Virus record (IMG/VR): IMGVR_UViG_3300025570_000010
From: an uncultured virus (IMG/VR IMGVR_UViG_3300025570_000010)
Lineage: Duplodnaviria > Heunggongvirae > Uroviricota > Caudoviricetes > Schitoviridae
Reading direction: 5' to 3' (one strand)
DNA length: 64,000 nucleotides
Shown here: one piece after another, positions 2,718 through 52,697 of the stretch
How the letters are laid out: every line of letters starts with the position of its first letter
How positions within the stretch are numbered: the first letter of the stretch is position 1
Notes under the pieces: generated by a model
What the model saw: the letters and a program-made list of their open reading frames with translations, nothing else
Told to the model about the DNA's origin: nothing
The model's database searches: none
Made by a program: the position numbers and the translations under genes

Positions 2718-3217
2718 TTGGTTTCGGGGATGAGATATTCCCCATGGTTTGGGTGGTATCCGTAATCAAGTTCTGCTTGTTTACGAACAGATATAGCTTC
2801 TTCTTTAGTGTTATACCGACCAAGGTTGATACTTTTACCTTCAGAACAAATACTTGCTTGCCATTTTTGTCTGGAAATAATGAAAGAGACCCCCATTATA
2901 CCAGAAGTGTTGTTTTTGAATTTTGATCTGTTACGAAGATTACCAGTATCATCTACATTTCTTAGGTTTTTTAACCGGTTATCAAGTCTATTGTGGTTTT
3001 CATGATCAATACGATCACAATCAACACCATATACCATTTTGAAGATGATCCGGTGCATTAGCCATGTATGACCTTGACGTTTGAAACGAAGATACCCGTC
3101 AGAAGTTACACTACCAGCCTCTTTACCTGAATCCTTATAAGTTACAATTCCAGTTAAAGAATCATAATTCAAAAGTTTAAGCAAAGAGGCTTGAGATGGT
3201 GTTGGTTTAGGTTTCAT
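2714..3217 (-). CDS. Free-standing HNH homing endonuclease with AP2-like C-terminal DNA-binding domain
   Basis: MHRIIF...IDHENHNRLDNRLKNLR; NNTSGIMGV...LGRYNTKEEA; AT-rich relative to neighbours. Confidence 0.85.
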   Translation of the reverse strand: MKPKPTPSQASLLKLLNYDSLTGIVTYKDSGKEAGSVTSDGYLRFKRQGHTWLMHRIIFKMVYGVDCDRIDHENHNRLDNRLKNLRNVDDTGNLRNRSKFKNNTSGIMGVSFIISRQKWQASICSEGKSINLGRYNTKEEAISVRKQAELDYGYHPNHGEYLIPETK

Positions 3218-4488
3218 TTGTTTTCCGGTATTAAAAATACTTCCCCATGGATGTTGGCAGGGACTGAGTAATAAGCCTCTGGAACCAGCCAGATGCACTC
3301 CCACTCAGGTTTCGGAGGGATAGTAACGCAGAGGTCAGTGAAGATCACCAAAGCATCAGACCCCAGCTCTGCTGTGCGTTTCCACACGTCTTTGAGGTCT
3401 GTACCACCACCAGCTTGGACATGAATGTTCCCATACTTTTCCTTGTCGGTGAAGGTTTTCTCCAACTTGATCTTCGTGTCGAAGAACAAGACTGTCAACA
3501 GGGCTGGATTCAAAAGTTCCTTGATGGTCCTGACGGAGTCATGGAACTGCTGTGCCTGTTTGGGGGTGATCGACCCACTCACATCGAGAGCATAGGTGAG
3601 GTGAGCCAATCGGTTGACATGCCCCCGTTTGGGGAAACGTCCGGGCAGCATGAGCTTGGAGCCATTCAATCCATGTTGCCGACGATTTGGTCGCATGAAT
3701 GTCCGCTTCCCACCTGATAAAGGATCAGTGAGATAATCCTTGAAGATGTCATGGTACGTTGCACCTTTGACCATCACACGGACGTTGGAGAGATCAAGTT
3801 TGATCCCTTGGCTTCCGGTTGTATTTCCGGCTTGTTTGCCATGTTTGTCCACATCTTCTTCAGCTTTTTTCTTCTGATCTTCCAAGGTCTTACCCTCGGA
3901 GTTGGCGATTTGTTCGACCAGATCTTCGATCAGCTCGGCAGGGATGTGTCCATCCATCATGCCCGGTGTGGGCTTGGGCTTTTTCTTCTCTTCTTCGTAG
4001 ATGGTGTTGTACACCTGCTCAGTCGATTGGCCTTTGAACTGAGGATCCTTGCATGGTTCAGTTCCATCGAAGGTGAAGCCGTCATCCTCCAAGGCATTGT
4101 TGATGACGTGGTCAGCAGCCTTGTTGTGGACGTAGGGATCACATGTCTTGCCACGTTCCAAGTGCTTCAGGATCAGGTGCCAGATCTCGTGAACACACAC
4201 GGTAATCCGTGTCTCTTCCGGGATCGAGTCATAAAAATCCGGGTTGAAGAAAATGAAACCATGTCCAGCACATGCAGTGGGGATCGAGTACGACCAGAAG
4301 ATCCGGACGTTTGCGATGTACCGGGCAAGCCCGACACACCTGGGATCGTTTACGACGATCTCTTCAAATGCCTTCTTCAGCGTGATTGCTTCAGAAGGAC
4401 GCATCTCCTCTTGCTCTTGAGGAGTTGCTGGGGGTGGAGGTGCATTAAGCACCCCCGAAGACGGTGGAACCAAGATAACATTGGTCAT
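3214..4488 (-). CDS. Metallopeptidase-like (HExxH) + VWA domain protein, N4 gp25-like
   Basis: VHEIWH motif; DVSGS MIDAS, GGGT, IFTD. Confidence 0.85.
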   Translation of the reverse strand: MTNVILVPPSSGVLNAPPPPATPQEQEEMRPSEAITLKKAFEEIVVNDPRCVGLARYIANVRIFWSYSIPTACAGHGFIFFNPDFYDSIPEETRITVCVHEIWHLILKHLERGKTCDPYVHNKAADHVINNALEDDGFTFDGTEPCKDPQFKGQSTEQVYNTIYEEEKKKPKPTPGMMDGHIPAELIEDLVEQIANSEGKTLEDQKKKAEEDVDKHGKQAGNTTGSQGIKLDLSNVRVMVKGATYHDIFKDYLTDPLSGGKRTFMRPNRRQHGLNGSKLMLPGRFPKRGHVNRLAHLTYALDVSGSITPKQAQQFHDSVRTIKELLNPALLTVLFFDTKIKLEKTFTDKEKYGNIHVQAGGGTDLKDVWKRTAELGSDALVIFTDLCVTIPPKPEWECIWLVPEAYYSVPANIHGEVFLIPENK

Positions 4489-4648
4489 GATTTAGGTCTC
4501 CAAAACCACTTGGGGACTGTGAGGCCACCCTTTTTGGGGTTGGCTTCAGCTTCCCTGATTGCTTCCTGACGGAGCTGCTCAACTTTTGCAGCCTTGTCTC
4601 GATGGCGTTGGAGAGCCTGTCGGTTCTCCAAATCCTTTATTTCCGCGT

Positions 4649-5908
4649 CTATGCGGTCAAATCGAGATTGTGTGTCTTTGACCGAAACGGGTTTTGCTTG
4701 ACTACCTGACCCGTTTGCGGGCGTTGACGGTTGCCCGGAAGGAAAAGCGAGTTCAATTCCTCATCGGTAGCCGGTTGAGGGATGTCGATCTCTTTGACAT
4801 CGAGACGCTTTTTCACCTCGTCCACCAGACGTTTGTCCGATGCAGTTTGTCCGAGTTTCTCGACCAAAATCTGAGCGAACAGAGAAGAATGTTCTCCATC
4901 CATCCGGTTCATGAACTGAAGGATCGAGTCCCGGCTTTGTTCACTGGTTTCAATGAAGAAATCAGCGAGGCTTGAGGTGAGTTCAGCCTTCCCAGCAGTG
5001 GTCGAAGGGATCTTCGTGGAGCTGGGCGACTGGGCTACTTCCCAGGGGTAAGGCAATTGCATTGTCTCGTCGTAGTGTTCTTTGAACGACTGACCAGCAA
5101 TGACCCCCACTGCACTGAACAACATGGCCTGGATGGCCGGTGTGATCACTGCACCTTGGGAGGTGGGCATCGGGATACCAGAGGCATCCTTCTTCGTGAT
5201 CTGGTTCTTGGACGACTGCTTTTCATGCAGCTTGACGATCTTGAAGACTTTGCCCCAACCACGAGGTGTGTTGTACGGCTCCAATTCGTCACGTTTGGAA
5301 GGGTCGATGGTGCCAAGCAACAGGTCAGGGTACTTCTTGATGAAGGAGATGACAGACTCAGCCGAGTCTTTCTTGGGCAGGCTTTCAGCCCATTTCAGCC
5401 AGTCTTTGCTGGAGACTTTCATCTCCACAGGCAGCATACGAGTGATCAGGGTGTCAGGCAGAGGACGTGCAATGGCACTGTCTGTGGACCGGTTCCCGGC
5501 TGCCACGATCAGAGCTTTGCTGTGGACCTTCTTGCCACCAACACGGTGTCCCAGAAGCAGGGAATAGATCGCTGCCATGACTTCTTCAGTGGCCGACGAG
5601 AGTTCGTCGAGGAAGATGAGCCATCCATCACGACCTTTGGGCAGAGCATCTCCTTCCATAGGGAAGGTGTCGAATGGGTTGTAGTGAGCTTTGCCTTTGG
5701 TCTCATCCAGACTCGGAAGACCGGTGAGATCCTCCGGCAACATCTGACTCAGACGAACGTCGAGGACTTCAAGATTGAATTCCTCACCAATTTGGAACAT
5801 GAGATCCGATTTCCCAATGCCCGGAGGTCCGGCAACATAGGGGATTTCACGCATCAACAAACAGTTTTCAACGAAAATCTTTGTTTGTGAAGGGCTGAGA
5901 GCTTTCAT
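4649..5908 (-). CDS. MoxR-type AAA+ ATPase, N4 gp24-like
   Basis: Walker A GPPGIGKS, Walker B IFLDE, AAGN sensor; adjacent to VWA gene. Confidence 0.85.
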   Translation of the reverse strand: MKALSPSQTKIFVENCLLMREIPYVAGPPGIGKSDLMFQIGEEFNLEVLDVRLSQMLPEDLTGLPSLDETKGKAHYNPFDTFPMEGDALPKGRDGWLIFLDELSSATEEVMAAIYSLLLGHRVGGKKVHSKALIVAAGNRSTDSAIARPLPDTLITRMLPVEMKVSSKDWLKWAESLPKKDSAESVISFIKKYPDLLLGTIDPSKRDELEPYNTPRGWGKVFKIVKLHEKQSSKNQITKKDASGIPMPTSQGAVITPAIQAMLFSAVGVIAGQSFKEHYDETMQLPYPWEVAQSPSSTKIPSTTAGKAELTSSLADFFIETSEQSRDSILQFMNRMDGEHSSLFAQILVEKLGQTASDKRLVDEVKKRLDVKEIDIPQPATDEELNSLFLPGNRQRPQTGQVVKQNPFRSKTHNLDLTA

Positions 5909-5971
5909 TTTCTTTCTCCAGTTGGGCTGCTGCTCCATGCAGTCAGCGATAAAACCAGAAAGAAAAAATCA

Positions 5972-6195: not shown

Positions 6196-6230
6196 AAAAA
6201 AACTGGCTCCCCTCGTTATGAGGGGAGCCT
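6196..6230 (-). terminator. Rho-independent terminator
   Basis: GGCTCCCCTC/GAGGGGAGCC stem followed by T-tract on the minus strand. Confidence 0.8.
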
Positions 6231-6235
6231 TCTTT

Positions 6236-6733
6236 TCATGCAAGTGTCCATTTGAAGCCATAGGCTGTCTTCAGTGAACCAAGACAACATGAGCGGATGT
6301 TGCCTGCTGCGTAGCCAGTCATTTCCTGAGCGTGCCATGAGGATTTGAATGTGGCGATGATGTTGCCATCGAGATCCATCTGATGAACAGGCTTGGCCCT
6401 CGTGTGGCCCTTGTTGATCTTACCGTCTCTGTGATCGACCTTGGACTTGGCCATGTTCTCAGCCCATGTGACCAGTTGCAGGTTGCTCAGGGTGTAGGGC
6501 TTGGAATCATCGAGCCTATCAAGGGAAGGTGCGAAGTTTCTGTCATGGTTCGAATCTTGGTAGCCTTGCCAGATCTCAGTGAGGTTAGGCTGGAGCTTCA
6601 GCCATTCAATCAGCTCATCGAGTGTGTAGTCAGGCATGGGATGACCACGCTTCTTTGACGTACCCTTTTGATTTTGCAGGACTCTTCCGAAGAAGACTCG
6701 TGGAATGGTGCGGTATCTTTCTTTCTGGTTCAT
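6236..6733 (-). CDS. Free-standing HNH-like homing endonuclease with NUMOD1-type C-terminal HTH
   Basis: PSLDRLDDSKPYTLSNLQLVTWAENMAK; KPVHQMDLDGNIIATFKS...AYGFKW; GGAG RBS. Confidence 0.75.
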   Translation of the reverse strand: MNQKERYRTIPRVFFGRVLQNQKGTSKKRGHPMPDYTLDELIEWLKLQPNLTEIWQGYQDSNHDRNFAPSLDRLDDSKPYTLSNLQLVTWAENMAKSKVDHRDGKINKGHTRAKPVHQMDLDGNIIATFKSSWHAQEMTGYAAGNIRSCCLGSLKTAYGFKWTLA

Positions 6734-6796
6734 AGTGTTCTCCAAAAAATATGACTCCCCATACCACAAGGGTACAGGGAGTCAAGCTAGCTTACA

Positions 6797-6984
6797 TCAT
6801 GCGAGCATATAATTCGCATTCAGGATCAGATCACGGTCGATGTGTCCAACCTTCTTGGTTTTGATGCCTTTATGAGCGATTTGTTTTGCCAAATCTTCCA
6901 ACAGACTAGAGTCGTTAATGTCTGCAAGAATTGTATTGTATTGCTTACGCAAGTCATTTCCGTAGTTGGGATGTGCTCGGAAAC
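6797..6984 (-). CDS. RNA polymerase II catalytic subunit (N4 gp16-like RNAP2), exon 3
   Basis: Continues motif C after splicing: VHD-C-FRAHPNYGNDLRKQY...ILNANYMLA*. Confidence 0.88.
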
Positions 6985-7943
6985 CAAATATTAAATGAGT
7001 CGTTAACTCACCCTTAACTTCCATGGTTTGGATGGAAGTCATACTTAATGTTAGCAGATTGTCTTGCTGACTTAGCCTCATCAAGTGTATCGTAAGTACC
7101 AAGGGATATTTGTTTTCCTTGGACCATGATGTGAGCATTAAATCTTCCAGAAGGAAGAGTTCTCACACCATTGACTCCTGATGAGTTGTTACATTTCAAG
7201 GACATGTTTGTTTGGTTCTGTCTGTGTTCCACTTCTCTCAGATTATACCAACGATTGTCGGTGCGATCATGATTGATGTGATCCACTTGTGAAGGCCAGT
7301 TTCCTGTCTTCATGAACCATATAACTCTGTGAGCAAGGTATTCCTTTCCACCGATGGTTACAGAAAAGTAACCTTCGTTGTGTGGATAGACAGCAAGAGA
7401 ACCTTTATGGCAACGTCTTGTATCTAGCTTATGAGTCAACTCTCCTGTGTATTCACTATAGTGAAACACTTTCAACAAGTCGTTCTGAGTGAACGTCTTC
7501 ATCTTTGTTATGATGTCTTTACAGTTATCACATAGGTGTCCCACTCTGCTTTTCTTTGCATCGTAGAAGTTGCATTCATAGTCTTGTGAGCACTGTAAGC
7601 ATTTACATATAGCTTTGAATTTAGAGAGTTTAGTCTTGATTAGTAACATAAGTATGCTCCTTGGTTCATACATGATCTATTGTAGATCATATCCTAATAC
7701 AAGGAGAAAGTCTCCGTCTTTCGTCGGAGTATCGGACTATATCATCACCCTTCTGGTAAACCAGTTAGGGGGAAGGCGCTTCGGAGGTGACTTCACTCTC
7801 CTACTCCCTTGCGGGATAGTCTCTACACCTTCTCACGGTAGTTTGTGAGCTTGGCTCGGGATTGCCATATCCTTTCGGACTTAGGTTTCCCCGAATTCAC
7901 CTTCTTCTTCGATGAGAATTTCTTCTCAAAGGACCGTAAATTC
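6985..7943 (-). mobile_element. Group I intron 2 (IA2-like) in RNAP2 motif C
   Basis: Exon GACU pairs with intron GGUC (U-G at splice site); P GAATTCGGGGAAAC, Q AATCCCGAGC, R AGAGACTA, S ATGATATAGTCC; terminal G at 6985. Confidence 0.9.
7014..7673 (-). CDS. Intron-encoded HNH homing endonuclease with AP2-like domain (in P9 region)
   Basis: LAHRVIW...VDHINHDRTDNRWYNLR; NNSSGVNGV; lies 3' of the S element; AT-rich. Confidence 0.88.
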   Translation of the reverse strand: MYEPRSILMLLIKTKLSKFKAICKCLQCSQDYECNFYDAKKSRVGHLCDNCKDIITKMKTFTQNDLLKVFHYSEYTGELTHKLDTRRCHKGSLAVYPHNEGYFSVTIGGKEYLAHRVIWFMKTGNWPSQVDHINHDRTDNRWYNLREVEHRQNQTNMSLKCNNSSGVNGVRTLPSGRFNAHIMVQGKQISLGTYDTLDEAKSARQSANIKYDFHPNHGS

Positions 7944-8534
7944 AGTCATGCACAGAGACCAGATCGAATGGTTTGGTTGGCAAGCTGTTGATCAGCTCGT
8001 CGATGACCTTGCGGTCAACCAATCCGATAGTGTCAGCGTAAAGGTGATCGAGAATTCGTACTGACAAAAAGCCTGTACGCAGGAAATTATTCCACAATTC
8101 AGTGACAATGTGGAAAGATTTCCCGTTTTTGCCTGGATATGTAGAACAAAGTGCTCCTACCACACGATCAACAGTGGTCTGTTTGAACATGCAGCGACGG
8201 AACATCTCCCGTACCACCATCCCATCCACAGAGTGAATGAGATTCGGTCCCAGTCCCTTGTGGAAGTCGGGACGTGCGTCGATCTTCACCGGGACACTGT
8301 AATCTGTGTCCAAGAACTTGAACGGAACGAGTTCCTTGTCCTTGGTTTCGATGCACGCATGGAAGTTGTCGGGCATCACCCACTCGTAGACGCTGCCACT
8401 GACTTGGTCCCACAGCTCTTGCAAGCCGAGGTTCAGATCCCATGCACCCGGTGCCATGTCGGCAATGGTGTCATAGAAGAGGTCGATGTTCTCACCAAAC
8501 GTGTACTCAGGCATAGCCGTGGACCCGTAGAATG
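7944..8534 (-). CDS. RNAP2 exon 2
   Basis: FYGSTAMP (end of motif B)...PNLIHSVDG...LVSVHD (motif C). Confidence 0.9.
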
Positions 8535-9386
8535 CGTTGTGTTCAACTGGGTTCGTTAATCCCAGCCCGTCCTGTTGGCTAATTCAGGACTGCTACCAAT
8601 TACTTGGCAGACCAGACTATATCTTCATCCTCTTACGAGGAGATGTGCGCTTCGGACCACTTGGCCCTACTCCCTTACGGGATAGTCGTTGCTCGTTCCG
8701 ATACTTCTACTATGCGTTCACACATGGTAATGAAATCATGTGTTGTAAGATCACCTTTGGCACGATTAGCAGCCCATGAGAGCCACTGCACATTTCCTTT
8801 GGTGTATCCTTTATCTGGTTCGATCTTGTCCAAGGAGGGACATAGTGGATGCTTTTTCTCGATTACAAAATCAATACCTGTTAAGGCGCATTTACGATTT
8901 TGAGATTCGAACATATTGAATAGGAAGTCTTCATCAATATCAGGAGTGATTTGATTGAACTTCTTAGCTCTACCATTAGCCTCAACCAACCTTCCTCGAA
9001 TCAAGGACATTAGTTTACGGTCTTTCGGTTCCACTTTTTTGATCTTATCAGATCCTCTGTAGCCTTTACCATTTTCAGTAGCATACTTAGCCCTGAATTG
9101 ACGAGCATACTCAGCCCTGCATGGTTTACAGTAGCTATGGTATTCTTGTCTTGGTTTGGAAGTATTTTTCCAATTTTGTTTAGAGGGTGCTTTTATCATC
9201 TCCACTATAGGGATTTGATTTGTACACATTTTGCATAGTCGAGTATCCATAAAAACATTCCTTGTTTGCTTTTATGGTTGTATTGGCTTCGATCAGGATT
9301 GTCCACAGCATTACCTGTTGGGAGGTTCCCTGAGTTCACACATTTGCTTAACGGATGTTACCACCCGTTTGACCCCATTTTTCAAA
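8535..9386 (-). mobile_element. Group I intron 1 (IA2-like) in RNAP2 motif B
   Basis: Exon UGACCU pairs with intron GGGUCA; IGS AAUG pairs with 3' exon CAUU (P10); P GAACTCAGGGAAC, Q AATCCTGATC, R CAACGACTA, S AAGATATAGTCT; terminal G at 8535. Confidence 0.9.
8675..9250 (-). CDS. Intron-encoded HNH-like endonuclease (in P6 loop)
   Basis: N-terminal CxxC...CxxC; KCALTG...PSLDKIEPDKGYTKGNVQWLSWAANRAK; 3' end reads through the R element. Confidence 0.8.
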   Translation of the reverse strand: MDTRLCKMCTNQIPIVEMIKAPSKQNWKNTSKPRQEYHSYCKPCRAEYARQFRAKYATENGKGYRGSDKIKKVEPKDRKLMSLIRGRLVEANGRAKKFNQITPDIDEDFLFNMFESQNRKCALTGIDFVIEKKHPLCPSLDKIEPDKGYTKGNVQWLSWAANRAKGDLTTHDFITMCERIVEVSERATTIP

Positions 9387-9789
9387 AGGTCATGATGGCG
9401 TTCTTCACCTGCTTTCGAGTGAGGATACCGCTGAGGTTCATGCCCTCGTAGATCTCGACGTATGAGTCCACACAGCGAGTCTGGATTCCTCCACAAAGAT
9501 CAAAAGACTTTGGGCATGAAACCAGAAGTGAGAGGAGCTGAAGGCCCGATGAACAGGCATCCAGTGAGATCATGTAACCTGATGGATCACCACGTTGGGT
9601 CATCTTGTAGGCAACTGCTGCTGCACGCAGACCAATTGGGTCTGAGGCTTTCTTGAAGAGCTTGGGGTCAGCCAAGTCGATCTCATGGAAGTGAGCGATA
9701 CGCTCGTCCCAAGTCTTCTTCTCATAGCTCTTGTCGTGTTTGCACGCGACTTCAGCCATGATGTATTCTTTGCCGGATAACATTTGCAT
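9387..9789 (-). CDS. RNAP2 exon 1
   Basis: Motif A ISLDACSSGLQ; motif B RKQVKNAIMT; AGGAGG RBS. Confidence 0.9.
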
Positions 9790-9800
9790 TCGGAGTCCTC

Positions 9801-10046
9801 CTACGGATCTTCGTTGATGTGAAAGTGCTTGTTGAGGCGACCATAGAACCTTTGCTTCTTGGTTCCTTGATCATATCCATTGCGATGGACGCATGGAGTG
9901 TGGCCAGTAGGCCGATCACGGTTCTTGGTGTTGAAGTCCCAAGGGTTGTTCTGGTAGCCATCCTTTCCCCGTTTGTTGGGGTTGGATGGATCTACCTTCG
10001 GCTTCTTGTTCCACCTCTTGCGTCGCTGCCAGAGGCGGGTCAGCAT
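9801..10046 (-). CDS. Hypothetical basic protein
   Basis: 81-aa ORF coupled to upstream stop. Confidence 0.55.
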   Translation of the reverse strand: MLTRLWQRRKRWNKKPKVDPSNPNKRGKDGYQNNPWDFNTKNRDRPTGHTPCVHRNGYDQGTKKQRFYGRLNKHFHINEDP

Positions 10047-10297
10047 CAGATGTCTCCCGGAGACCAGTAGTCCCAGGCACCCACTTCAGCTTCTTTGGCC
10101 TCTTGCACAGCCTCGTTGAAGGCCACTGCATTGGCTTCTTGTTCATCCAGCAGTTTGGCTGCCAGATTCCATGCCATACCTGCTGAAACAGCAGCTACAG
10201 CACGTTCTGAGCCTGTGTGAGCTTCGATCCAAGACATGAGAGACCCCATGTCATTGGGTGTGGCGAAAATCTCGTTGGGTTTGATGGGATTGGTCAT
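10046..10297 (-). CDS. Hypothetical protein
   Basis: ORF MTNPIKPNEIFATP..., in operon. Confidence 0.6.
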   Translation of the reverse strand: MTNPIKPNEIFATPNDMGSLMSWIEAHTGSERAVAAVSAGMAWNLAAKLLDEQEANAVAFNEAVQEAKEAEVGAWDYWSPGDI

Positions 10298-10310
10298 CGT
10301 TTTTCTCTTT

Positions 10311-10517
10311 TCATGCTTTGGTGATGTGGGTGGAATTGTAGATGCAATAGTCATTTGCATCTCTGTTGAATGGTACTCCATTTTCGATGAGAAAATCAGG
10401 AGTCACTGCAAGGAACTTTTCACGCCAAGGATCCCAGAAGATGACACGAACACGGTCGTTCATATCACCTTCTGCCATTTTATCCTGAGCTTCTTGGTGC
10501 TGCTCTACCATATTCAC
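10311..10517 (-). CDS. Hypothetical protein
   Basis: 68-aa ORF overlapping the upstream stop. Confidence 0.55.
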   Translation of the reverse strand: MNMVEQHQEAQDKMAEGDMNDRVRVIFWDPWREKFLAVTPDFLIENGVPFNRDANDYCIYNSTHITKA

Positions 10518-11044
10518 TTCTTATGTTTCTTTCTCTTGGCTCTGAGTGCAGCACGTTTTGCATCACTCGGAGGGGTTGAAGAACCCTTTTCAGGGATTGG
10601 TTGGGACCAGTACATCTTTTTTGGTCCGTCTCGTTCAGATCCTTCCTTGTCTGTGGCTGCCCGGCCATACCCAAGCCAGTAGCCTTCAGGCTTGATGTGA
10701 AGACCCTCGTCCATGATGATCGAGTCGATTCTCTGTCCACCATACATCTCATGGAATGGTACTGATCTTCGAGAAAAGCGACCGGTCATTGTACCTTCAA
10801 AGGACTCAGACATCATCAGCTTCATGATCTCTTTCTGCCAAGAGTCGAAGCCAAAGAGTTTGCCTTCTTCAATAGCAAGTCTTTTTGGTTGCTTGGCAGA
10901 GATTTCAGGACGGAGTTGACCATGACGGTATCTTCCAGCTTTGATGTCGGCTTTGACCTCCTCAGAGATCCTTCGGAGTCGTGCTTCGAACGACTCCTCG
11001 GTCTCTTCTTCGCTGAAAGCGTTGATGTCATCTTGTGTGATCAT
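10514..11044 (-). CDS. Hypothetical protein
   Basis: 176-aa ORF with ATGA coupling, AAAGGTG RBS. Confidence 0.65.
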   Translation of the reverse strand: MITQDDINAFSEEETEESFEARLRRISEEVKADIKAGRYRHGQLRPEISAKQPKRLAIEEGKLFGFDSWQKEIMKLMMSESFEGTMTGRFSRRSVPFHEMYGGQRIDSIIMDEGLHIKPEGYWLGYGRAATDKEGSERDGPKKMYWSQPIPEKGSSTPPSDAKRAALRAKRKKHKK

Positions 11045-11163: not shown

Positions 11164-11324
11164 ATATCGAATTCCCAGTGGCAGAGAAGCAGGAAGAAAA
11201 ACAACCAGAGCATTTCATAGGTTGCTCGTGTGTACTCTTCGTTGTGTTCTGCACCAAGGACGATGATCATTTGAATCACCGTCACAAGGAACAATCCAAA
11301 TCTGTAAAGAGTGTTGAAGGTCAT
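11160..11324 (-). CDS. Small putative membrane protein (54 aa)
   Basis: Read by eye: MTFNTLYRFGLFLVTVIQMIIVLG...MLWLFFFLLL; ATGA overlap with RNAP1 stop; GAGGTG RBS. Confidence 0.55.
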   Translation of the reverse strand: MTFNTLYRFGLFLVTVIQMIIVLGAEHNEEYTRATYEMLWLFFFLLLCHWEFDI

Positions 11325-12121
11325 GAGATCACCTCTTTCTTGGCTAGTTGGAGCACAGCTTTGTTGTAGTCAGTGCCTTGAGAGTTGACATGATAAGCGG
11401 ATGCGTAGCACCGGCCTCGACGGTCGAATTTGTGGGTGAGAAACAATTCATCAGACAAGTTGTGGATTGTTTCCATTACATCGACAGACGTTGCATAGAA
11501 GATGTCAGCTTGTTTCTGACGCTTCCTGAAGTCTGCGAAGTCCTCACCTGGGTTCCTTGTTGGACGGATGTATTTCCCCTCTTCGGAGTAGACAACATCC
11601 ATGTTGAGGGAGAGAGCGACTGAGTTCGCCCGGTTGAGATGGTCGAGACACATGTCTTTGTCATCAAAGTAATCAGACCCATTCAGAACGACTGACCCTT
11701 TCACGGTGTAGTAGCCGGTCTGGAAGTTGTGTTTGATCTGCTTGGGTGGAATGACCATCGGCAGTGGATACTGGTAACGATCCAGCATTTCCTGCACGTC
11801 TTCACTCACGTCAAACTTGACGATGAATTTTTGGCTCGACTCCTGAAAGTCGAGATAGTCGATCTCACACAACAGGAGCAGTTTATCTGCCACATACTGA
11901 GGAGTGCCGAATTTCGGGGACAGGATCCCAACCATTGTCGGGACATCTGCTTGACGATGGAGATAAATCTGGGCCAGAGCCTCAGTTGCCATCGCTGGTT
12001 CAGTGACCAGTTGGTCATCTCCCATCTCTCGGAATTGATCCCGGAGAACAGCCAGAAGCTGATGTTTGGAGAACAACTCTTCCAGCCCAGTTTGGGTGTC
12101 TTTTGAGGGTATTTTTGTCAC
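11321..12121 (-). CDS. RNA polymerase II subunit 1 (N4 gp15-like RNAP1)
   Basis: YQYPLPMVIPP; HKFDRRGRCY...HVNSQG (DxxGR motif); 266 aa. Confidence 0.92.
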   Translation of the reverse strand: MTKIPSKDTQTGLEELFSKHQLLAVLRDQFREMGDDQLVTEPAMATEALAQIYLHRQADVPTMVGILSPKFGTPQYVADKLLLLCEIDYLDFQESSQKFIVKFDVSEDVQEMLDRYQYPLPMVIPPKQIKHNFQTGYYTVKGSVVLNGSDYFDDKDMCLDHLNRANSVALSLNMDVVYSEEGKYIRPTRNPGEDFADFRKRQKQADIFYATSVDVMETIHNLSDELFLTHKFDRRGRCYASAYHVNSQGTDYNKAVLQLAKKEVIS

Positions 12122-15162: not shown

Positions 15163-15236
15163 TGCGAGCTGGTGTAACGGGAACATGTCAGATTCATGCT
15201 TTGACGCTAGGGGTTCGACTCCCCTGCTCGCAACCA
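15163..15236 (+). tRNA. tRNA with CAT anticodon (Met, or Ile2 if lysidine-modified)
   Basis: TGCGAGC/GCTCGCA acceptor stem, loop TT-CAT-GC, GGTTCGACTCC T arm, encoded CCA. Confidence 0.88.
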
Positions 15237-16825: not shown

Positions 16826-16900
16826 TGGTGTGACAGGATGGAATCGAACCACCGACGCTCTGGCCTTCAACCAGACGCTCTACCCCTGAGCTACTGTCAC
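16826..16900 (-). tRNA. tRNA-Phe(GAA)
   Basis: GTGACAG acceptor stem, TCTGG-TTGAAGG-CCAGA anticodon arm, CCA. Confidence 0.92.
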
Positions 16901-16998
16901 AATTTGTATTGGCTTAGGTGCCTATGATTCCTTTCTTCATCACACAGTATTCTCGCACTGAGGCTGTCCCCCATGTAGGTGGAGGGGCGGTCCTAACT

Positions 16999-17072
16999 TG
17001 GTGTACCGGCTGGGAATCGAACCCAGGTCGCAGGCTTAAAAGGCCCATGCTAAACCACTCAGCTACCGGTAC
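16999..17072 (-). tRNA. tRNA-Lys(TTT)
   Basis: GTACCGG acceptor stem, loop CT-TTT-AA, CCA. Confidence 0.9.
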
Positions 17073-17078
17073 ATTCTT

Positions 17079-17154
17079 TGGTTGAGGATACTGGGATCGA
17101 ACCAGTGACATTACGATTATCGGTCGCACGCTCTACCTACTGAGCTAATCCTCA
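17079..17154 (-). tRNA. tRNA-Ile(GAT)
   Basis: TGAGGAT acceptor stem, loop CC-GAT-AA, CCA. Confidence 0.92.
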
Positions 17155-17166
17155 ACGAAAGAATGT

Positions 17167-17243
17167 TGGTGCCGCCACGAGGCATCGAACCCCGGACCTT
17201 CTGCTTACAAGACAGTTGCTCTACCAAACTGAGCTATGACGGC
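17167..17243 (-). tRNA. tRNA-Thr(TGT)
   Basis: GCCGTCA acceptor stem, loop CT-TGT-AA, CCA. Confidence 0.92.
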
Positions 17244-17832: not shown

Positions 17833-20800
17833 ATGAGTCTCCAGATAAAATCCGGATTGAATATAATCTCTGCTTTGAGAAAATATAAAATTAGTGTTTT
17901 TTCAACTCCGTCTGCTGTTATCACCGGCCTGACCAACAATCCGACATACGGACAGACCGCACAAGATGGTGTGCAGTTGACAGCCGTTGCGTCAAATCTT
18001 GACGAGCTGACAGTCACTGGCTACCAATGGCGCACGGTGGAGAGTGCGACGACGCTTTCCAGTGTTGCAACATATACTCCTAATGGGAGTGTCATCGACC
18101 TAGACAACCTTTATTGTGTTGTTACCCTGTCCGATGCCTCTACTATTAATACTTCAACTTATGTTGTGCGGTATGCTCCACCTGTTGCTGGATCATTGGT
18201 AGGAGTCAATGAGACACAGGGGATTGGTACGCCAACTGTAAACCTTGCAGCAGGTTTCACTGGTTCCGGTCTTGTATACACTGAAAATGCGTCATGGGCT
18301 TCCATCACAGGCAGCTCACTCACAATTGACGACGCGGTGCGGACGGATACGATCACGATTACAGCAACCAACTCAGGCGGCGCGGCAACGGTTGACCTCT
18401 CGGTTACGATCTCATCTGCCCCATATACGATTATATTTGGCGAGCTTACCCCGATTGGTGCTGGCGGGTATCCAACGGCCTCAGTAGATGGCGTTTATGG
18501 AGAGTTCACGGCCGCATCTGGCATCATGTCGCCAAACAGATCGCCGCTCACTGTGACTACGGGTATCACTGCTGGCGACCTACTCATCGACGTGATTGCG
18601 GACTCTACAACGTGGGCCAGCACCCAGGAGGCTAAAGATTCTAGATCTGGCATCTTGGCGGGTACAACCCTAAGCGCGAACGTGCGTAAGGGGGCAAGAG
18701 TTGCCTATGACGCAAGCGGAAACTCTGCTGAATTTGCAGGTTATAGAAACAACACAATTCCGTTCACAATCCGAGGTGACACAAAGCCGGAAGCTGAGAC
18801 TGATCCACACTTCGATACATTCGCCTGTCAGGCATGGGGCGGGTTGGAGATGTACGATCTGAATATTGGGGGCGTGGCTGGAGTTGCATCGCGCCTGCGG
18901 ACCACCTCGGGGAACTCCTCGTTCCCATGGATAAATGGCCGTCTTGAAAGAGTGCATGTTAGTGGCGCTCCTTTCACGACGAATTATGACTACTCTACGG
19001 ATCAGGTGACGTTCGACACAAACATCTTGCCTAATCTACAGGACTGTTTCTCCCTATCCACCGGGGCCTGCGGCATGAGCAACATCTTGATCAAAGATTG
19101 CTCGGCTGAGTATGGGAAATACGGCCTCGTCGCCTACGCAAGCGGACCTGTGGACGTTGAGGGCTTCACCGCACGTCACTTGTTTGCCGACGCTATTCAG
19201 GGTGGCGATGTTGGCGGGTCTTGGCCTGTTAACATCTCTGGCATCCTAGCGGGTGATTATGTGGTGTCTCCGCCCGAGGAGGGTGGGGTAGGTACAGGTG
19301 GTGATGGGTTCCACGCCGATACAATACAGTGGCAAGGGCCAAGCGCTCTGCTTCGTTGTGAGGGTTTCATTCAGTACCGCAGACCCGGAAACTATGGCGG
19401 CGCTCAAGCCAATTTTAACACCGGAGCGGATACACAACATATATTCGGGCTTCTGGGATTTGGACGCACGGGTAACTTGACCTATAACTCTGGCCCTCCT
19501 TCCGGGGAAACTTCAGACATCGCCTATGTGTCTCAGGTTGACCTAGCGGCTGATGCAGGGGCAAACAGTTTTTCAAATATCAGGCTGTATCTTGGCGACG
19601 GAGGTACATTGCAAGTTAGAAACGCTGTGGTTCCTGCTGTGAGCGTCAATGGTGGCGCTGCAAACACACAGACAAATGTTGTCACTACGTCAGGTTACAC
19701 AGGTGGGCAGTGGGATGCTGCACTTAACCTTGGCAGACCTGTCTCTGTCCCTACCGATCCAACTATTGCCAATCTTTTAGCATTAGTACAACCAGCCCCT
19801 GCCGGAGTGTTTGACGGTAATACAATGTGGGATGCTATTGGTATTCCTACGGATGGAGCCAACTCGCAGATTTTCCGTAAGGTTGAAAACACTGCTCCTG
19901 TTATCTCGCTCGCAGAGACCACCATCGCAGATACAAGCGTGGTTGGTACATTGACGACTGACACAGAGGGTGGAACAGTATATTGGGCATTTGTCCCTGC
20001 GGCGACCAGTGTCGGCACCGACGCTGCTGTGGTTCTTGAGCAGATTAAAAGCCAAGAGTGGGCCAGTTCCGTCTATGGCTACGAGAACTCCATCATTGGA
20101 GACGGCACCTTAGATATTACAGTAACAGGGCTGACAACGGATGTCGCTGGCAAATTAGTTGCGGTGGTGCGTCATGGTTATGGCGTGCTGTCAAACGTGA
20201 CAACAGTTGCAATGACGCCGACTGTTACTGCCACTGCCGAAGTATCAGTACAATTCATTGACGTAGACTCGCCAGTCGCAGATCCCATTGTGTTCGACTT
20301 TGGCTCTGTCCCTGCTGGGGATTACTTTGTTGCAGTATCGACGCGATTGGGTAATGGCACAGCAGGCGTCTTGGGCGACATGACCGTCAATTCGGTGGCA
20401 GTGTCTGAAGATCTTGACATTTCCGGGATAAACGGACGAACAGCTATCGGTGGGTACTTTGTGACACTTGGCTCAACCTACTCAGGCACTTGGGCGTTGG
20501 GGTCGGCAACAAACCGAATTTACGGCACGGCCACTCTCTACAACATCGACGGGATGGTTAAGTCTGCGTTCGATGTGGACAATGCTGCACCTGCTGTCAC
20601 GACCGCAGCAGGCGACGATGTGATTGTTTGGGGCTCACATAAGAATGTGGAGGCTGCTTTGCCTGCGCCACTAGTCACTGACGCTGCGTCTACCAGTGTG
20701 GCGGCATCTATCTTTAGGTCTCTACAAGGCCATGAGTTTGGAACTGGCGCTGGCGTACAAACTTATAGCGTTCCTGGTCTGTCCTTCGATGACGAACAAT

Positions 20801-23787
20801 ATGCTGCCATTGTGTTCACTCCAGTTACGATTAGCTTCGGCACATTCACTGCTGTCGGAGCAGGCGCGGTATCTACAGCAGAGGCTGACGGCACTTATGG
20901 TGAATTCACGATCTCAGGTGGTTTAATTACGCCAAATACCTCGCCGCTTACACCTGGGCCCACAGTTATAGGCGGAACAACCATAGCCGCAGTTGCAGAT
21001 CAGAGGCACTTTGCGACCTACGCAGAGTGCGCCACAGCCTACGCAGAAGTACCTCTTGACGGATCGATCACAATGATCGGTAGGTCCAAAGACTATATCA
21101 CAGATGAAGGTTTCCTGCTTTGGATACCACCAGCTCGCGTCTTCACCTCTGAGCAATTGATCACATATGAAGGCTATGTCGAAAACAGCGCTACGGAACC
21201 TAGTTTGAACGCATGGGGTGCAAGAATTGGCCCTATCATTTTTGACGGCGTTTCTAAAGTCAGACTTAAAAATGTCAGCGTTTTCCATGGCGATCCATCC
21301 ACAGGATACAGCGGTGCAGACATATCCGCAGGTTACAACGGCGCACCTCTTATGGTGGAAAACACCGCCTCTTTCATAAAGTTCGAGAACGTCGAAGTTT
21401 CTTCCACATCATTCGTGGAAGTTGTCACGGCAGACGGAAACTACGCCAACAGCGGCTTCCGTAAGGCGGGCAGTGGATACAGCAATATCGTCATGTCGCA
21501 AGGCATCTCGTTCAAGGGGCCAGATAGCGACGCGACGAACTGTTTTATCCACGACTGCGCGAGGGGCATGTACCTCGGCGCTGATCGCTGCGGACACTCC
21601 AACGTCACGATCCAAGACGTATACACCAATTTCACAACGTGGGGATCAGCAGCAGATGATATGTTTGCATACGATTTTGTACACATTGGCGTATGGGCGA
21701 CACCTTCCGACAATACAACAGGCGTGACGGCAACCGACCCTCACTCGTCCACAGGCTCATCCGGCGACCCCTCTGATGGGGCAACTATGTCGAACGTGAC
21801 TATCGCGGGAGGCTACTCAGACGTAGCGTTTTGGCGGCGTGCTGATTTGCATGATGCGCTTGGTTTCCCTGTACCGACATCATCATCGACTGGTGCTAAG
21901 TTCAATGATCCCAACCTTCCGGGTGCGGGTTATCCCGGCAACGGTCAGGACACCTACGCCAACGTCAAGTTTCTGTACAACCTTAACGTGACGGGCAACA
22001 TTGGCCAGATGATTGCGGGATGTCGGGATGCCACGGTTTACGGGAACGTAAATTTACGGGCAACGTTGTTCGGCAGCGGCACGCCGGGGTTCTATATGGA
22101 TGCCGTCGAAAACCTGAAGATTAGTAAGAACCTCTCCCCTTACCGGAACACCACTTACGAATTCGATGGTGACACAGCCAATGGTTACGTCGTCACGGAT
22201 GATACTGTGACGGGCTATGACAACTTCTGGATGGAAGGCGACTTCTACCGAAATGAGTTCGTTGGCCACGAGACCAAGGGCTTTGATCGTCTTGAGGCGC
22301 ATGAGATCAGAGACGCCTACACCATTAAGGCGGGCAGTTGGTTGCTGGATAATGACATGGGCGGGCCAAGCTCGCCCAACTATCTCGGCGCTGGTGTTGT
22401 AGCTAATGCGTTCAGCGTACCGACACCAAGCGTCGGTGTGGAGGGTTCTTATACGCGCACCCAATGGAATGCCGATGCTCGCTGGTCTGGTACATATAAG
22501 ACAGGGGTGAGCGCTGGTCTTGTTGGTGGTTTCCTCGTCTCCTTCACGGCAACTACGGGGGCGGACGGCTCACAGCGCACGGTCTTCGATAGTCAGGGCA
22601 ACACCTTCGAAGTATCTCGTACTACTTCTGGACGGATTGAGCTGTATCTCAAGAACAGTGCAGACACGATCCCGATGCTGAAGTTCGTCAGCAAGGATAC
22701 TTACGCTGAGGGCGTTCGGGTGGACATGGCGTGTGAGTACGACTTCAGCAAAGGTATCGCTCGCGTCGCGTTCAACGGTGTGATCGACGGTTATGTCCGT
22801 GGTTCAGATTGGGACTTGTCCACCATCGACACAGATACGCTTGGTACAGTCAAGACGATGTACCTTGGTGGTCAGTATCTCGGCGTAGTTCCCTCACACA
22901 CACGTCCGTGGATTGGCGAAATCGGACTGTTCGCCTGTCACACCGGTGCCTTGCTGGGGCTGGATAGTGATGTGGGTATGTCTGCGATATATGCCGCCCC
23001 AGGTGGTTATTTCAAAGACCTCGGCACTGCTGGCGCTAACGTGATTGCAGGTGGCATGGATATGTTCGTGACGATGGAGGATGTCGTACCGACGCAGCGT
23101 CAGGCAGGCGCAGGGACATTCTCCGCGAACAGCGGGTCCGTGGCGCTGACCTTGGCCGGGCCTCCCCCGGCTACGGTTGAACCAGTTGTGCTCGACGGTA
23201 CGACGGCGTGGATCGACATGGACGTAGCTCTGGGCGCGTCGGTGCCTTATGTGACGGCGGCGTTTACGGTGAGCATCCCCGAAGCCGTGCCGAGTGTCGG
23301 CTTCGTGCTCAACTCAGGTAACGGCACAGGCGACTGGCACCTGTCACTGTTTGACAGCAACCAGCGGTGGTTCCTGAAAGCTGAGAATACCGCGGGCTCC
23401 TCTATGGGGTCGGTGTACCTGACCGGTTCAGCCATGGCCACGGCTACTGAGCAGAAGTGGCTTGTTAAGACCCGCGTAGGTTCGCAGCAAATCTGGATCG
23501 ACGGTGTGCTTGCACTGGATACTGCCCTCAACGGTAATGCACAGAAGTCACCAATCCTGATCGGTGCAGGCAATATCGCTGGTGGTGCAATGGGTGTGCT
23601 GCATGTCTCGAACATGTGGTACTCCATCGAGGACAACACCACAGCGGTCTACTCCGACTTCTACGACGGCGGTGGCAACGCGGTGTACTCGGGGACAGTC
23701 GCGGGCATGGTCCCACTTGTGGACCTGAAGTCTCTCGCAGACTGGAACGCCAGTACCTACGCAGTCGGCACGTTCGTGGCGGCATAA
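17833..23787 (+). CDS. Large tail fibre/spike: Ig-like domains, two putative beta-helix (pectin-lyase-like) regions and C-terminal LamG/ConA-like domains
   Basis: 1984 aa, Gly/Ala/Thr/Ser rich; FHADTIQWQG and CFIHDCARG beta-helix-like motifs; IWIDGVL and VAFNGV LamG-like motifs. Confidence 0.7.
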   Translation: MSLQIKSGLNIISALRKYKISVFSTPSAVITGLTNNPTYGQTAQDGVQLTAVASNLDELTVTGYQWRTVESATTLSSVATYTPNGSVIDLDNLYCVVTLSDASTINTSTYVVRYAPPVAGSLVGVNETQGIGTPTVNLAAGFTGSGLVYTENASWASITGSSLTIDDAVRTDTITITATNSGGAATVDLSVTISSAPYTIIFGELTPIGAGGYPTASVDGVYGEFTAASGIMSPNRSPLTVTTGITAGDLLIDVIADSTTWASTQEAKDSRSGILAGTTLSANVRKGARVAYDASGNSAEFAGYRNNTIPFTIRGDTKPEAETDPHFDTFACQAWGGLEMYDLNIGGVAGVASRLRTTSGNSSFPWINGRLERVHVSGAPFTTNYDYSTDQVTFDTNILPNLQDCFSLSTGACGMSNILIKDCSAEYGKYGLVAYASGPVDVEGFTARHLFADAIQGGDVGGSWPVNISGILAGDYVVSPPEEGGVGTGGDGFHADTIQWQGPSALLRCEGFIQYRRPGNYGGAQANFNTGADTQHIFGLLGFGRTGNLTYNSGPPSGETSDIAYVSQVDLAADAGANSFSNIRLYLGDGGTLQVRNAVVPAVSVNGGAANTQTNVVTTSGYTGGQWDAALNLGRPVSVPTDPTIANLLALVQPAPAGVFDGNTMWDAIGIPTDGANSQIFRKVENTAPVISLAETTIADTSVVGTLTTDTEGGTVYWAFVPAATSVGTDAAVVLEQIKSQEWASSVYGYENSIIGDGTLDITVTGLTTDVAGKLVAVVRHGYGVLSNVTTVAMTPTVTATAEVSVQFIDVDSPVADPIVFDFGSVPAGDYFVAVSTRLGNGTAGVLGDMTVNSVAVSEDLDISGINGRTAIGGYFVTLGSTYSGTWALGSATNRIYGTATLYNIDGMVKSAFDVDNAAPAVTTAAGDDVIVWGSHKNVEAALPAPLVTDAASTSVAASIFRSLQGHEFGTGAGVQTYSVPGLSFDDEQYAAIVFTPVTISFGTFTAVGAGAVSTAEADGTYGEFTISGGLITPNTSPLTPGPTVIGGTTIAAVADQRHFATYAECATAYAEVPLDGSITMIGRSKDYITDEGFLLWIPPARVFTSEQLITYEGYVENSATEPSLNAWGARIGPIIFDGVSKVRLKNVSVFHGDPSTGYSGADISAGYNGAPLMVENTASFIKFENVEVSSTSFVEVVTADGNYANSGFRKAGSGYSNIVMSQGISFKGPDSDATNCFIHDCARGMYLGADRCGHSNVTIQDVYTNFTTWGSAADDMFAYDFVHIGVWATPSDNTTGVTATDPHSSTGSSGDPSDGATMSNVTIAGGYSDVAFWRRADLHDALGFPVPTSSSTGAKFNDPNLPGAGYPGNGQDTYANVKFLYNLNVTGNIGQMIAGCRDATVYGNVNLRATLFGSGTPGFYMDAVENLKISKNLSPYRNTTYEFDGDTANGYVVTDDTVTGYDNFWMEGDFYRNEFVGHETKGFDRLEAHEIRDAYTIKAGSWLLDNDMGGPSSPNYLGAGVVANAFSVPTPSVGVEGSYTRTQWNADARWSGTYKTGVSAGLVGGFLVSFTATTGADGSQRTVFDSQGNTFEVSRTTSGRIELYLKNSADTIPMLKFVSKDTYAEGVRVDMACEYDFSKGIARVAFNGVIDGYVRGSDWDLSTIDTDTLGTVKTMYLGGQYLGVVPSHTRPWIGEIGLFACHTGALLGLDSDVGMSAIYAAPGGYFKDLGTAGANVIAGGMDMFVTMEDVVPTQRQAGAGTFSANSGSVALTLAGPPPATVEPVVLDGTTAWIDMDVALGASVPYVTAAFTVSIPEAVPSVGFVLNSGNGTGDWHLSLFDSNQRWFLKAENTAGSSMGSVYLTGSAMATATEQKWLVKTRVGSQQIWIDGVLALDTALNGNAQKSPILIGAGNIAGGAMGVLHVSNMWYSIEDNTTAVYSDFYDGGGNAVYSGTVAGMVPLVDLKSLADWNASTYAVGTFVAA

Positions 23788-52472: not shown

Positions 52473-52508
52473 AAAAAGACCCCTCCGGAGCTGTCCGGAG
52501 GGGTCTTG
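52471..52508. terminator. Bidirectional terminator between late and replication modules
   Basis: AAGACCCCTCCGGA/TCCGGAGGGGTCTT stem with A7 flank. Confidence 0.85.
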
Positions 52509-52514
52509 ATTGTG

Positions 52515-52697
52515 TCAGTCTGGAGCGTCTTTCTCGAAGTCCTTGGTGATGAACCATACTCCCCACAACCCCGTGAAAATCATGAGAAGAGGCATCAGTA
52601 CAGCAAGGATTGCTCCGAGAATTATGCCCGCTACCATTATGGTGACTGACAACAAACCAAAGAGAAGGGTTAGGCCGATGGCCTTCCACCTACTCAT
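52515..52697 (-). CDS. Small membrane protein
   Basis: 60 aa hydrophobic ORF with ATGA coupling. Confidence 0.65.
   Translation of the reverse strand: MSRWKAIGLTLLFGLLSVTIMVAGIILGAILAVLMPLLMIFTGLWGVWFITKDFEKDAPD

Follow-up and report, generated by a model that had tools for sequence, protein, structure and literature searches.

Two probable mobile group I introns with homing-type nuclease genes in the RNA polymerase II large-subunit gene of an uncultured N4-like phage

We analysed a window of 64,000 nucleotides (nt) from an uncultured virus of the family Schitoviridae (IMG/VR record IMGVR_UViG_3300025570_000010) and found that the gene for the large subunit of its N4-type RNA polymerase II (RNAP2) lies in three pieces on the minus strand, between positions 6797 and 9789. 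The two interruptions are very probably independent mobile group I introns, each with a gene for an HNH-type homing nuclease, that invaded this gene in an N4-like phage. The evidence consists of ribozyme signatures in both sequence and structure, exact boundaries, an intact and colinear coding sequence, natural alleles that lack the introns, and homologous introns at the same sites in other phages.

Results

The RNAP2 coding sequence is continuous across three exons

Exon 1 (9387..9789, minus strand, 403 nt) encodes motif A (SLDACSSG, with D77) and the first half of motif B (RKQVKNAIMT). Exon 2 (7944..8534, minus strand, 591 nt) encodes the YGS of motif B, the NLIHSVDG motif and, at its extreme end, the VHD of motif C, and exon 3 (6797..6984, minus strand, 188 nt) runs from CFRAHPNYGNDLRKQYN... 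to the stop codon. The roles of the residues in motifs A, B and C are assumed here. Together the exons make up 1182 nt and translate into one open frame of 393 amino acids (aa) and a stop codon. The joins rebuild ...VKNAIMT-S-FYGS... through T|CA and ...LVSVHD-C-FRAHPNYG... through T|GT (the bar marks the splice point), and the junction peptides predicted for the spliced protein are AIMTSFYGSTAMPEYTFGENIDLFYDTIADMAPGAWDLNLGLQELWDQVSGSVYEWVMPDNFHACIETK and PFDLVSVHDCFR. Both 5' exons end in T and the last base of both introns is G. Reading on into the introns without splicing gives ACC TTT TGA at site 1 and GAC TGA at site 2.

The 393-aa protein is identical to gp15 of Sulfitobacter phage EE36phi1 ('N4 RNAP2-like') at 237 of 391 positions (61%, E 2e-173), and neither junction requires a gap. 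Among solved structures, each exon matches solely N4 RNAP2 (6dt7_B), exon 1 over residues 1-105 (E 9e-12), exon 2 over 146-342 (E 1e-34) and exon 3 over 344-389 (E 1e-5). The envelopes of these matches run from 1 to 143 for exon 1 and from 344 to 404 for exon 3, and exon 2 is aligned from its residue 2, so that the split codons fall at N4 residues 144 and 343. EE36phi1 gp15 aligns with 6dt7_B from end to end (E 4e-81), and an RNAP2 profile made from ten sequences matches it at E 9e-148. In alignments of this profile, 'aierkevkkaimtslYgSea' falls on residues 624-643 of T7 RNA polymerase (motif B), 'svHDcF' on 'SVHDSY' of mitochondrial RNA polymerase (motif C) and motif A likewise on 'DGTCNGLQ', which places the insertion sites inside motif B and at the residue after the HD of motif C. 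Pfam returned no family for the RNAP2 exons at E 0.01. Judged from these alignments, the gene is that of the large (catalytic, gp16-like) subunit of an N4-type RNAP II.

Much of this had been proposed in an earlier, sequence-only reading of the window: the exon coordinates, total length and frame; the junctions KNAIMT-S-FYG and VHD-C-F; 5' exons ending in U, introns ending in G and a TGA within two codons of each unspliced exon; and an N4-type catalytic subunit with introns in motifs B and C. The coordinates and frame proved exact on re-reading and translation, the junctions were rebuilt and the base-level features were all read as claimed. The identity of the subunit agrees with the colinear alignments to EE36phi1 gp15 and 6dt7_B and with a gp15-like small-subunit gene upstream, and the position of the introns agrees with the profile alignments. 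Alignment of the joined protein to N4 RNAP2 had been set beforehand as a test, and it is colinear.

It is extremely unlikely that RNAP2 is here a dead gene, broken by insertions on a contig from a defective or mis-assembled genome. The question was raised for phage JWAlpha (Wittmann 2014, PMC3915230), but all three exons of the window retain the frame and the invariant residues, with no frameshifts or stop codons seen, and JWAlpha, ZQ2, XC38 and other phages with an interrupted RNAP2 are plaque-forming isolates. Mis-assembly is opposed by a contig of the source run that spans 6200-9567 with no differences, and by eight runs that hold at least 83% of the sampled sequence words.

Both interruptions carry a probable group I ribozyme core and a predicted nuclease gene

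The intron in motif C (intron 2; 6985..7943, minus strand, 959 nt, with a terminal G) has a compact ribozyme core, P1 to P9, at 7712..7943 (minus strand; Rfam model positions 1-253). Rfam model RF00028 matches at 7953-7712 (minus strand) with 74.8 bits against a cut-off of 50 (E 4e-18), and the whole model is covered. In P1 the exon GACU pairs with the guide GGUC, with U.G at the splice site. The nuclease gene (7014..7673, minus strand) lies 3' of the core in an extension of P9, and its likely start is ATG 7649 behind AAGGAG, giving 211 aa. The last 29 nt (6985..7013, minus strand) are a 3' tail that consists of a terminal hairpin and the terminal G; the UAACGA loop of this hairpin recurs in intron 1, and Shigella phage Moonfish has the same hairpin. 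The open reading frame (ORF) matches Pfam HNH_3 (5.9e-16, 58.3 bits against a cut-off of 24.8) and phrog_99 (1e-62), and AP2 at 1.7e-4, under the cut-off of that family. It is 58% identical to the ORFs of ZQ2 and Moonfish, aligned from residue 12 on, and a single-protein scan of IMG/VR found relatives at 36-39% only.

The intron in motif B (intron 1; 8535..9386, minus strand, 852 nt, with a terminal G) is very probably of group I, and its build is IA2-like, with an insert that forms P7.1/P7.2. Its 5' ribozyme half (9251..9386, minus strand) holds the internal guide of P1, P2, the 5' strand of P3, P4, P5 and the 5' strand of P6, and its 3' half (8535..8700, minus strand) holds P6', P7, P7.1, P7.2, P3', P8, P7', P9, P9.1, P9.2 (with the UAACGA loop) and the terminal G. 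The nuclease gene (8675..9250, minus strand; 576 nt, 191 aa) is placed in the P6 loop, with an AAGGAA ribosome-binding site before its ATG, and its 3' end and stop codon overlap P6', P7 and the P7.1 loop. In P1 the exon GACCU pairs with the guide GGGUC, again with U.G at the splice site. The encoded protein matches phrog_1035 'endonuclease VII' (4e-26) and phrog_3118 'HNH endonuclease' (6e-10); Pfam gave no family for it at E 0.01, and a single-protein scan of IMG/VR gave no match. The 3' core is about 71% identical to a stretch annotated as DNA polymerase I, endonuclease VII or hypothetical protein in T7-like Yersinia phages, which we take to be the DNA polymerase intron of those phages.

In the Rfam alignment both introns have an insert between P7 and P3' (P7.1/P7.2), the mark of the phage-type subgroup IA2, and both contain GATATAGTC as their J8/7-P7' motif. 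Both nuclease ORFs are of full length. A third exact copy of GATATAGTC, at 21091-21099 (minus strand), lies inside a plus-strand ORF of 1984 aa (17833-23787) and was set aside as probably due to chance.

RF00028 matches intron 1 at 9012-8593 with 33.6 bits (E 8e-6), and its fold is further supported by covariation. We aligned the two ribozyme halves of six sequences (the window and phages XC38, JWAlpha, HN04, phi 1 and pVco-5) and folded the alignments with RNAalifold. Compensatory changes were found in 15 of the 27 pairs predicted for the 3' half (P7.2, P8, P9, P9.2), where P7 is invariant, and in 12 of the 16 predicted for the 5' half (P2, P4, P5). The P7.2 hairpin covaries at alignment pairs 48-52/57-61. 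All seven pairs of P3 form in all six sequences, in four sequence variants and with the two strands 658-711 nt apart across the ORF, and P6 likewise bridges the ORF.

P1 covaries with the exon that it recognises. We call the insertion point of intron 1 in the window site 1b (ATG ACC T|), the point 8 nt upstream of it site 1a (GT|T ATG) and the insertion point of intron 2 site 2a (GAY T|). At site 2a, P1 reads GACU/GGUC in the window and ZC08 and GAUU/GAUC in Moonfish and the IMG/VR locus L080; at site 1a it reads GGCCGU/GCGGCC in JWAlpha and GGCCAU/GUGGCC in the IMG/VR locus L073. The proposal of two group I introns is supported by the Rfam matches and by the covariation among the homologues of intron 1.

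These observations bear on a second alternative, in which no splicing takes place and three polypeptides are made and come together, a situation comparable to that of N4 RNAP II, itself a T7-like polymerase that has been split. The N4-type enzyme is already encoded by two genes, exon 2 has an in-frame ATG at 8514, and insertion of a homing endonuclease has been argued to have created the two-subunit split (Amgarten 2017, PMC5418858). We nevertheless regard such an arrangement as very unlikely. The ATG at 8514 lies past YGS with no ribosome-binding site visible, and exon 3 offers no start codon. One break lies inside motif B and the other a single residue past the catalytic Asp, and full ribozyme cores with a P1 that covaries with the exon would be pointless in a gene that is not spliced.

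Natural alleles lack the introns

Alleles without the introns occur in nature. A contig of 2594 nt from an estuary DNA metagenome, about 86-94% identical to the window, follows 9387-10100 with 40 differences and then passes directly from 9387 to 8534. This skip amounts to exactly 852 nt and leaves no base ambiguous. Over 8534-7943 the contig has 81 differences; after that it omits 1077 nt of the window and has 118 letters of its own in between that find no match. The 118 letters are the diverged start of exon 3, and since 1077 - 118 = 959 nt the contig is without intron 2 by length. At a further joint, 6242 to 6804, it lacks 561 nt (6243-6803) that hold a free-standing nuclease gene in the window. 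The estuary allele, which is DNA and not spliced RNA, shows that intron 1, intron 2 and the block with the free-standing nuclease gene are each an insertion, bounded where predicted.

The closest intron-less relative, the IMG/VR locus L025 (83% identity over exon 2), reads ATC ATG ACC TCA TTC TAT GG at site 1. This is the ligated sequence, and it fixes the Ser codon and the T|CA join. Four IMG/VR relatives are uninterrupted, one of which (81% identical) ends before site 2, and the 27 best GenBank RNAP2 rows (68-100% identity to EE36phi1; phages of the roseobacter group) are all in one uninterrupted piece. A junction one base off at site 1 (ACC|GCA, Ala) was considered and rejected: it breaks the U and G rules, P1 pairing favours T|, and L025 reads TCA.

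No exon-exon joint was found in run X18 (wastewater, labelled 'RNA?' and marked as probably DNA), a result that does not bear on expression. The contigs of this run match only parts of the ribozyme cores (7641-7902 and 8558-8819), at 85-99% identity and with a summed depth of up to about 1450 (1451 over 8558-8688). Close relatives of both intron cores appear to be abundant in other wastewater phages.

RNAP2 introns recur across the Schitoviridae

GenBank has 465 records with an RNAP2 match; interrupted genes among them were counted by targeted searches, and the counts are lower bounds. The IMG/VR survey covered the best 80 of 258 confirmed relatives; its scan pattern lies in exon 2, so splits inside exon 2 would be missed. 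A survey of Schitoviridae RNAP2 loci for the same sites had been suggested in the sequence-only reading, and it did uncover introns at the same, adjacent or other sites. Related introns occupy the same or adjacent RNAP2 sites in at least ten GenBank Schitoviridae, and 9 of the 80 IMG/VR loci are interrupted and 71 uninterrupted. Seven of the nine interrupted loci were compared with Rfam, which matched six of them to group I (E 0.01 or better) but not L074. None of the 80 loci has two introns in one RNAP2. Five are split at site 1a (L054, L059, L073, L074 and L078; that of L073 is without an ORF and scores 49.8 bits), two at site 1b (L029 and L052), one at site 2a (L080, where the contig ends inside the intron, 77.1 bits) and one in motif A (L031, group I at 97.6 bits). 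The intron of L031 (3317-3588; RNAP2 68% aa identity) lies between SLDACSSG and LQILSLL, has the P1 GGGU/GCCC and ends in G.

For the intron-1 nuclease the nine best distinct phages, at 38-50% aa identity, are HN02, HN04, HN05, JWAlpha, JWDelta, XC38, phi 1, pVco-5 and pVco-7, and the insertion points were read in five of them (XC38, JWAlpha, HN04, phi 1 and pVco-5). Acinetobacter phage XC38 (NC_055823), JWAlpha/JWDelta (Achromobacter), HN04 (Burkholderia) and phi 1 and pVco-5 (Vibrio) share with the window the host gene, the location in motif B, the nuclease family and the ribozyme build, in which the ORF is placed in P6. In XC38 the insertion point and P1 are identical to those of the window, whereas JWAlpha, HN04, phi 1 and pVco-5 have their intron at site 1a. 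Unlike the window, all of these phages lack the intron in motif C. The IMG/VR locus L029 carries an intron at 3672-4498 in which the ribozyme parts are 84-96% identical to those of intron 1, the nuclease gene 52-62% and the exons 66-67%; because this intron is a mosaic, ribozyme, nuclease gene and host gene would have had separate histories.

When distinct phages are ranked by similarity to the intron-2 nuclease, the first five (43-58% aa identity) are ZQ2, Moonfish, ZC08, MIF8 and pYD6-A. All five have an HNH_3-type nuclease in a group I intron beside the VHD of motif C in RNAP2, and these introns score 82-94 bits in Rfam. ZQ2, Moonfish and ZC08 (Pseudomonas) have the identical insertion point, whereas the intron of Erwinia phage MIF8 and Pseudoalteromonas phage pYD6-A splits the Phe codon behind its first base, 3 nt downstream of that point. 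Full-length homologues of intron 2 (96% cover, 66-67% nt identity) occur in Escherichia phage vB_EcoP-ZQ2 and Shigella phage Moonfish, and the records of these two list the locus as 'RNA polymerase', 'HNH endonuclease' and 'RNA polymerase' in succession. Like the window, pYD6-A (L015) has two RNAP2 introns, at 2838-3085 and 3411-3667 and both significant in Rfam. One is without an ORF (74 bits) and lies before NVIHSIDG, not in motif B; the other has an HNH ORF and follows IHD-A. A two-intron RNAP2 is therefore already in GenBank. The third RNAP2 exon of pYD6-A is unannotated in its record, as is the last RNAP2 exon of ZC08 (L013; C-FAVHPNNALDLL..., at about 3800-3990). The 'hypothetical protein' after that exon in ZC08 resembles, by eye, the N-terminal piece of a split ATPase, which would fit the published account of this phage (Amgarten 2017, PMC5418858).

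In all, at least six distinct insertion points lie in or beside the catalytic motifs of RNAP2 (one in A, two in B, one at HSxDG and two in C), and they recur across subfamilies. Among uninterrupted loci (81 scanned, with 67 and 79 motif matches at sites 1 and 2), the sequence ATGAC does not vary at site 1, and CATGAYTGYTTC hardly varies at site 2.

This distribution also bears on the suggestion, made in the sequence-only reading, that two splicing events time or gate the switch from early to middle transcription. The introns do sit in an enzyme needed for middle transcription, and splicing necessarily precedes the synthesis of active RNAP2. However, intron-less alleles are the rule, as seen in the 27 GenBank rows, the 71 uninterrupted IMG/VR loci and the estuary contig, and other lineages have introns at different sites, in ones and twos, a pattern of opportunistic invasion rather than of a conserved control device. 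Because close relatives are free of them, the introns are dispensable, and the suggested checkpoint is therefore left unsupported; we consider it very improbable.

Neighbouring genes

The gene for the small RNAP2 subunit (gp15-like; 11321..12121, minus strand) is uninterrupted, lies upstream of the large-subunit gene and matches phrog_2166 'N4-like RNA polymerase' (4e-82). Three small ORFs (81, 111 and 176 aa; 9801-11044, minus strand) lie between the two subunit genes and have no match in Pfam or PHROG. In EE36phi1, an HNH gene and six hypothetical genes stand between the RNAP2 subunit genes. Just 3' of the RNAP2 stop codon is a terminator-like hairpin of 14 pairs followed by a T run (6752..6784, minus strand), and directly downstream is the free-standing nuclease gene (6236..6733, minus strand; phrog_1035, 1e-13), which is flanked by two terminator-like hairpins. 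Its product is 27% identical to that of the intron-1 ORF over 96 aa (E 2e-7), and the family phrog_1035 is common to both. A free-standing HNH gene likewise follows right after RNAP2 in XC38.

Elsewhere in the window, a gene for a gp24-like ATPase (4649-5938) and an ORF of 3661 aa (41487-52472), the size of a virion RNA polymerase, give an N4-like context. Five tRNA genes were found at 15163-15233 (plus strand) and 16829-17243 (minus strand), the four on the minus strand being tightly clustered. A SNORA77 match at 52406-52519 (37.3 bits, under its cut-off) was taken as spurious.

Discussion

Several observations weigh against two group I introns with the boundaries given here. The 33.6 bits of intron 1 are under the curated Rfam cut-off of 50, so that the covariance-model check suggested in the sequence-only reading succeeded in full for intron 2 and fell short for intron 1; the low score is explained by the nuclease gene placed within the P6 loop. 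The P6 helix of intron 1 has one A.C mismatch in the window. At site 1 the ACC|GCA junction can formally be drawn, and it would give Ala as in EE36phi1. Intron 2 is 66.8% identical in nt to its coliphage homologue and the flanking exons are 58-59% identical, a moderate difference; because the intron is only moderately more similar than the exons, its transfer would not be recent. Finally, none of the runs that match the stretch is on record as RNA, and four wastewater runs labelled 'RNA?', a guess of the tool, hold 0.05-0.07 of the words.

Taken with the evidence above, we propose that the pre-mRNA, an early transcript in N4 biology, would fold into two ribozymes. In each, free guanosine would attack the 5' splice site where P1 forms its U.G pair, the terminal G would set the 3' site, and ligation of the three exons would yield the normal 393-aa subunit. 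The in-frame TGA at or one codon past each 5' splice site may halt ribosomes ahead of the ribozyme cores, and the intron nucleases would be translated from their own start sites. The nucleases are predicted to cut or nick the intron-less RNAP2 alleles of co-infecting relatives, into which the introns would then be copied by repair. Splicing, nuclease activity and homing are predicted here; for cleavage of the intron-less allele near the insertion site, the patchy distribution of the introns and the conservation of their target DNA are indirect signs. The DNA of the catalytic motifs hardly varies within the family, which probably explains the choice of these sites. The mechanism is that of ordinary selfish DNA and is nothing new in kind.

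Group I introns of phages are familiar from td, nrdB and nrdD of T4 and from the DNA polymerase genes of T7-like phages. The classical phage introns have compact IA2-type cores with P7.1/P7.2, ORFs looped from P6 or P9 and locations in the most conserved motifs of essential genes, as is seen here; the host gene differs. Two introns in one gene are on record for nrdE of Twort (cited in PMC5418858). Other papers report a td intron in pVa5 (PMC5746245), HNH genes that split gp24, DNAP and gp43 in JA1 and VchO139-I (PMC3670811), and one intron, its gene unnamed in the BASEL table, in the N4-like phage Bas69 (PMC8594841). For RNAP2 itself, the homing endonuclease of ZC08 was described as inserted in the RNAP subunit 2 gene and as a clue to the origin of the two subunits, with no ribozyme named in the excerpted text (Amgarten 2017, PMC5418858). 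RNAP2 of JWAlpha/JWDelta was reported as interrupted and its function questioned, again with no ribozyme named in the excerpt (Wittmann 2014, PMC3915230), and a later paper takes this interruption as 'two RNAP2' (Ma 2016, PMC4837373). Both the records of XC38, JWAlpha and phages of their type and the 2014 paper call the gene split or interrupted, not intron-bearing. No paper that explicitly places a group I intron in an RNA polymerase gene of the T7/N4 type, N4-type RNAP2 included, came to light in our searches, whose coverage left out subscription journals. The sequence-only reading knew of no description in a Schitoviridae RNAP2. As far as the excerpted sources go, this stands in that no paper was found that names an intron or ribozyme; it does not extend to the interruption, which had been published for JWAlpha and ZC08, or to same-site introns, which are in the records as split genes.

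A related case is gp210 of PhiPA3, an intron-encoded HNH endonuclease in the gene of a virion RNA polymerase subunit, which was shown to nick this gene in a co-infecting phage whose allele lacks the intron (Birkholz et al. 2024, PMC11620839). PhiPA3 has, and the window very probably has, an HNH homing nuclease in a group I intron by which a phage gene for RNA polymerase is split. The polymerase of PhiPA3, however, is multisubunit, belongs to a jumbo phage and is unrelated to the T7/N4 single-subunit family, and for gp210 nuclease activity and a competitive benefit were demonstrated, whereas the nucleases of the window are predicted. The RNAP2 locus of the window stacks two nuclease-bearing introns and a free-standing nuclease gene. 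By analogy, and only tentatively, the RNAP2 large-subunit gene might be a contested locus in phage-against-phage competition, in which the introns are beneficial and not neutral parasites. The nucleases would then disable the middle polymerase gene of intron-less co-infecting relatives, as PhiPA3 gp210 does to PhiKZ, and the carrier would be immune to its own nucleases because its target sites are disrupted. We think this possible and, on balance, rather doubtful.

Overall, the 'broken' or 'two-copy' RNAP2 of at least ten published N4-like phages and of the window is most simply understood as one intact gene with self-splicing introns, a reading that would answer the question raised for JWAlpha in 2014. 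The gene for the T7/N4-type single-subunit RNA polymerase would thereby be a further recurrent target of introns, alongside those for DNA polymerase, ribonucleotide reductase, thymidylate synthase and the gp24 ATPase, and its insertion points mark the most invariant DNA of the RNAP2 family. Should the nucleases act as in PhiPA3, intron-mediated exclusion among N4-like phages could be studied conveniently at this locus; several of these phages are therapy candidates that are used in cocktails.

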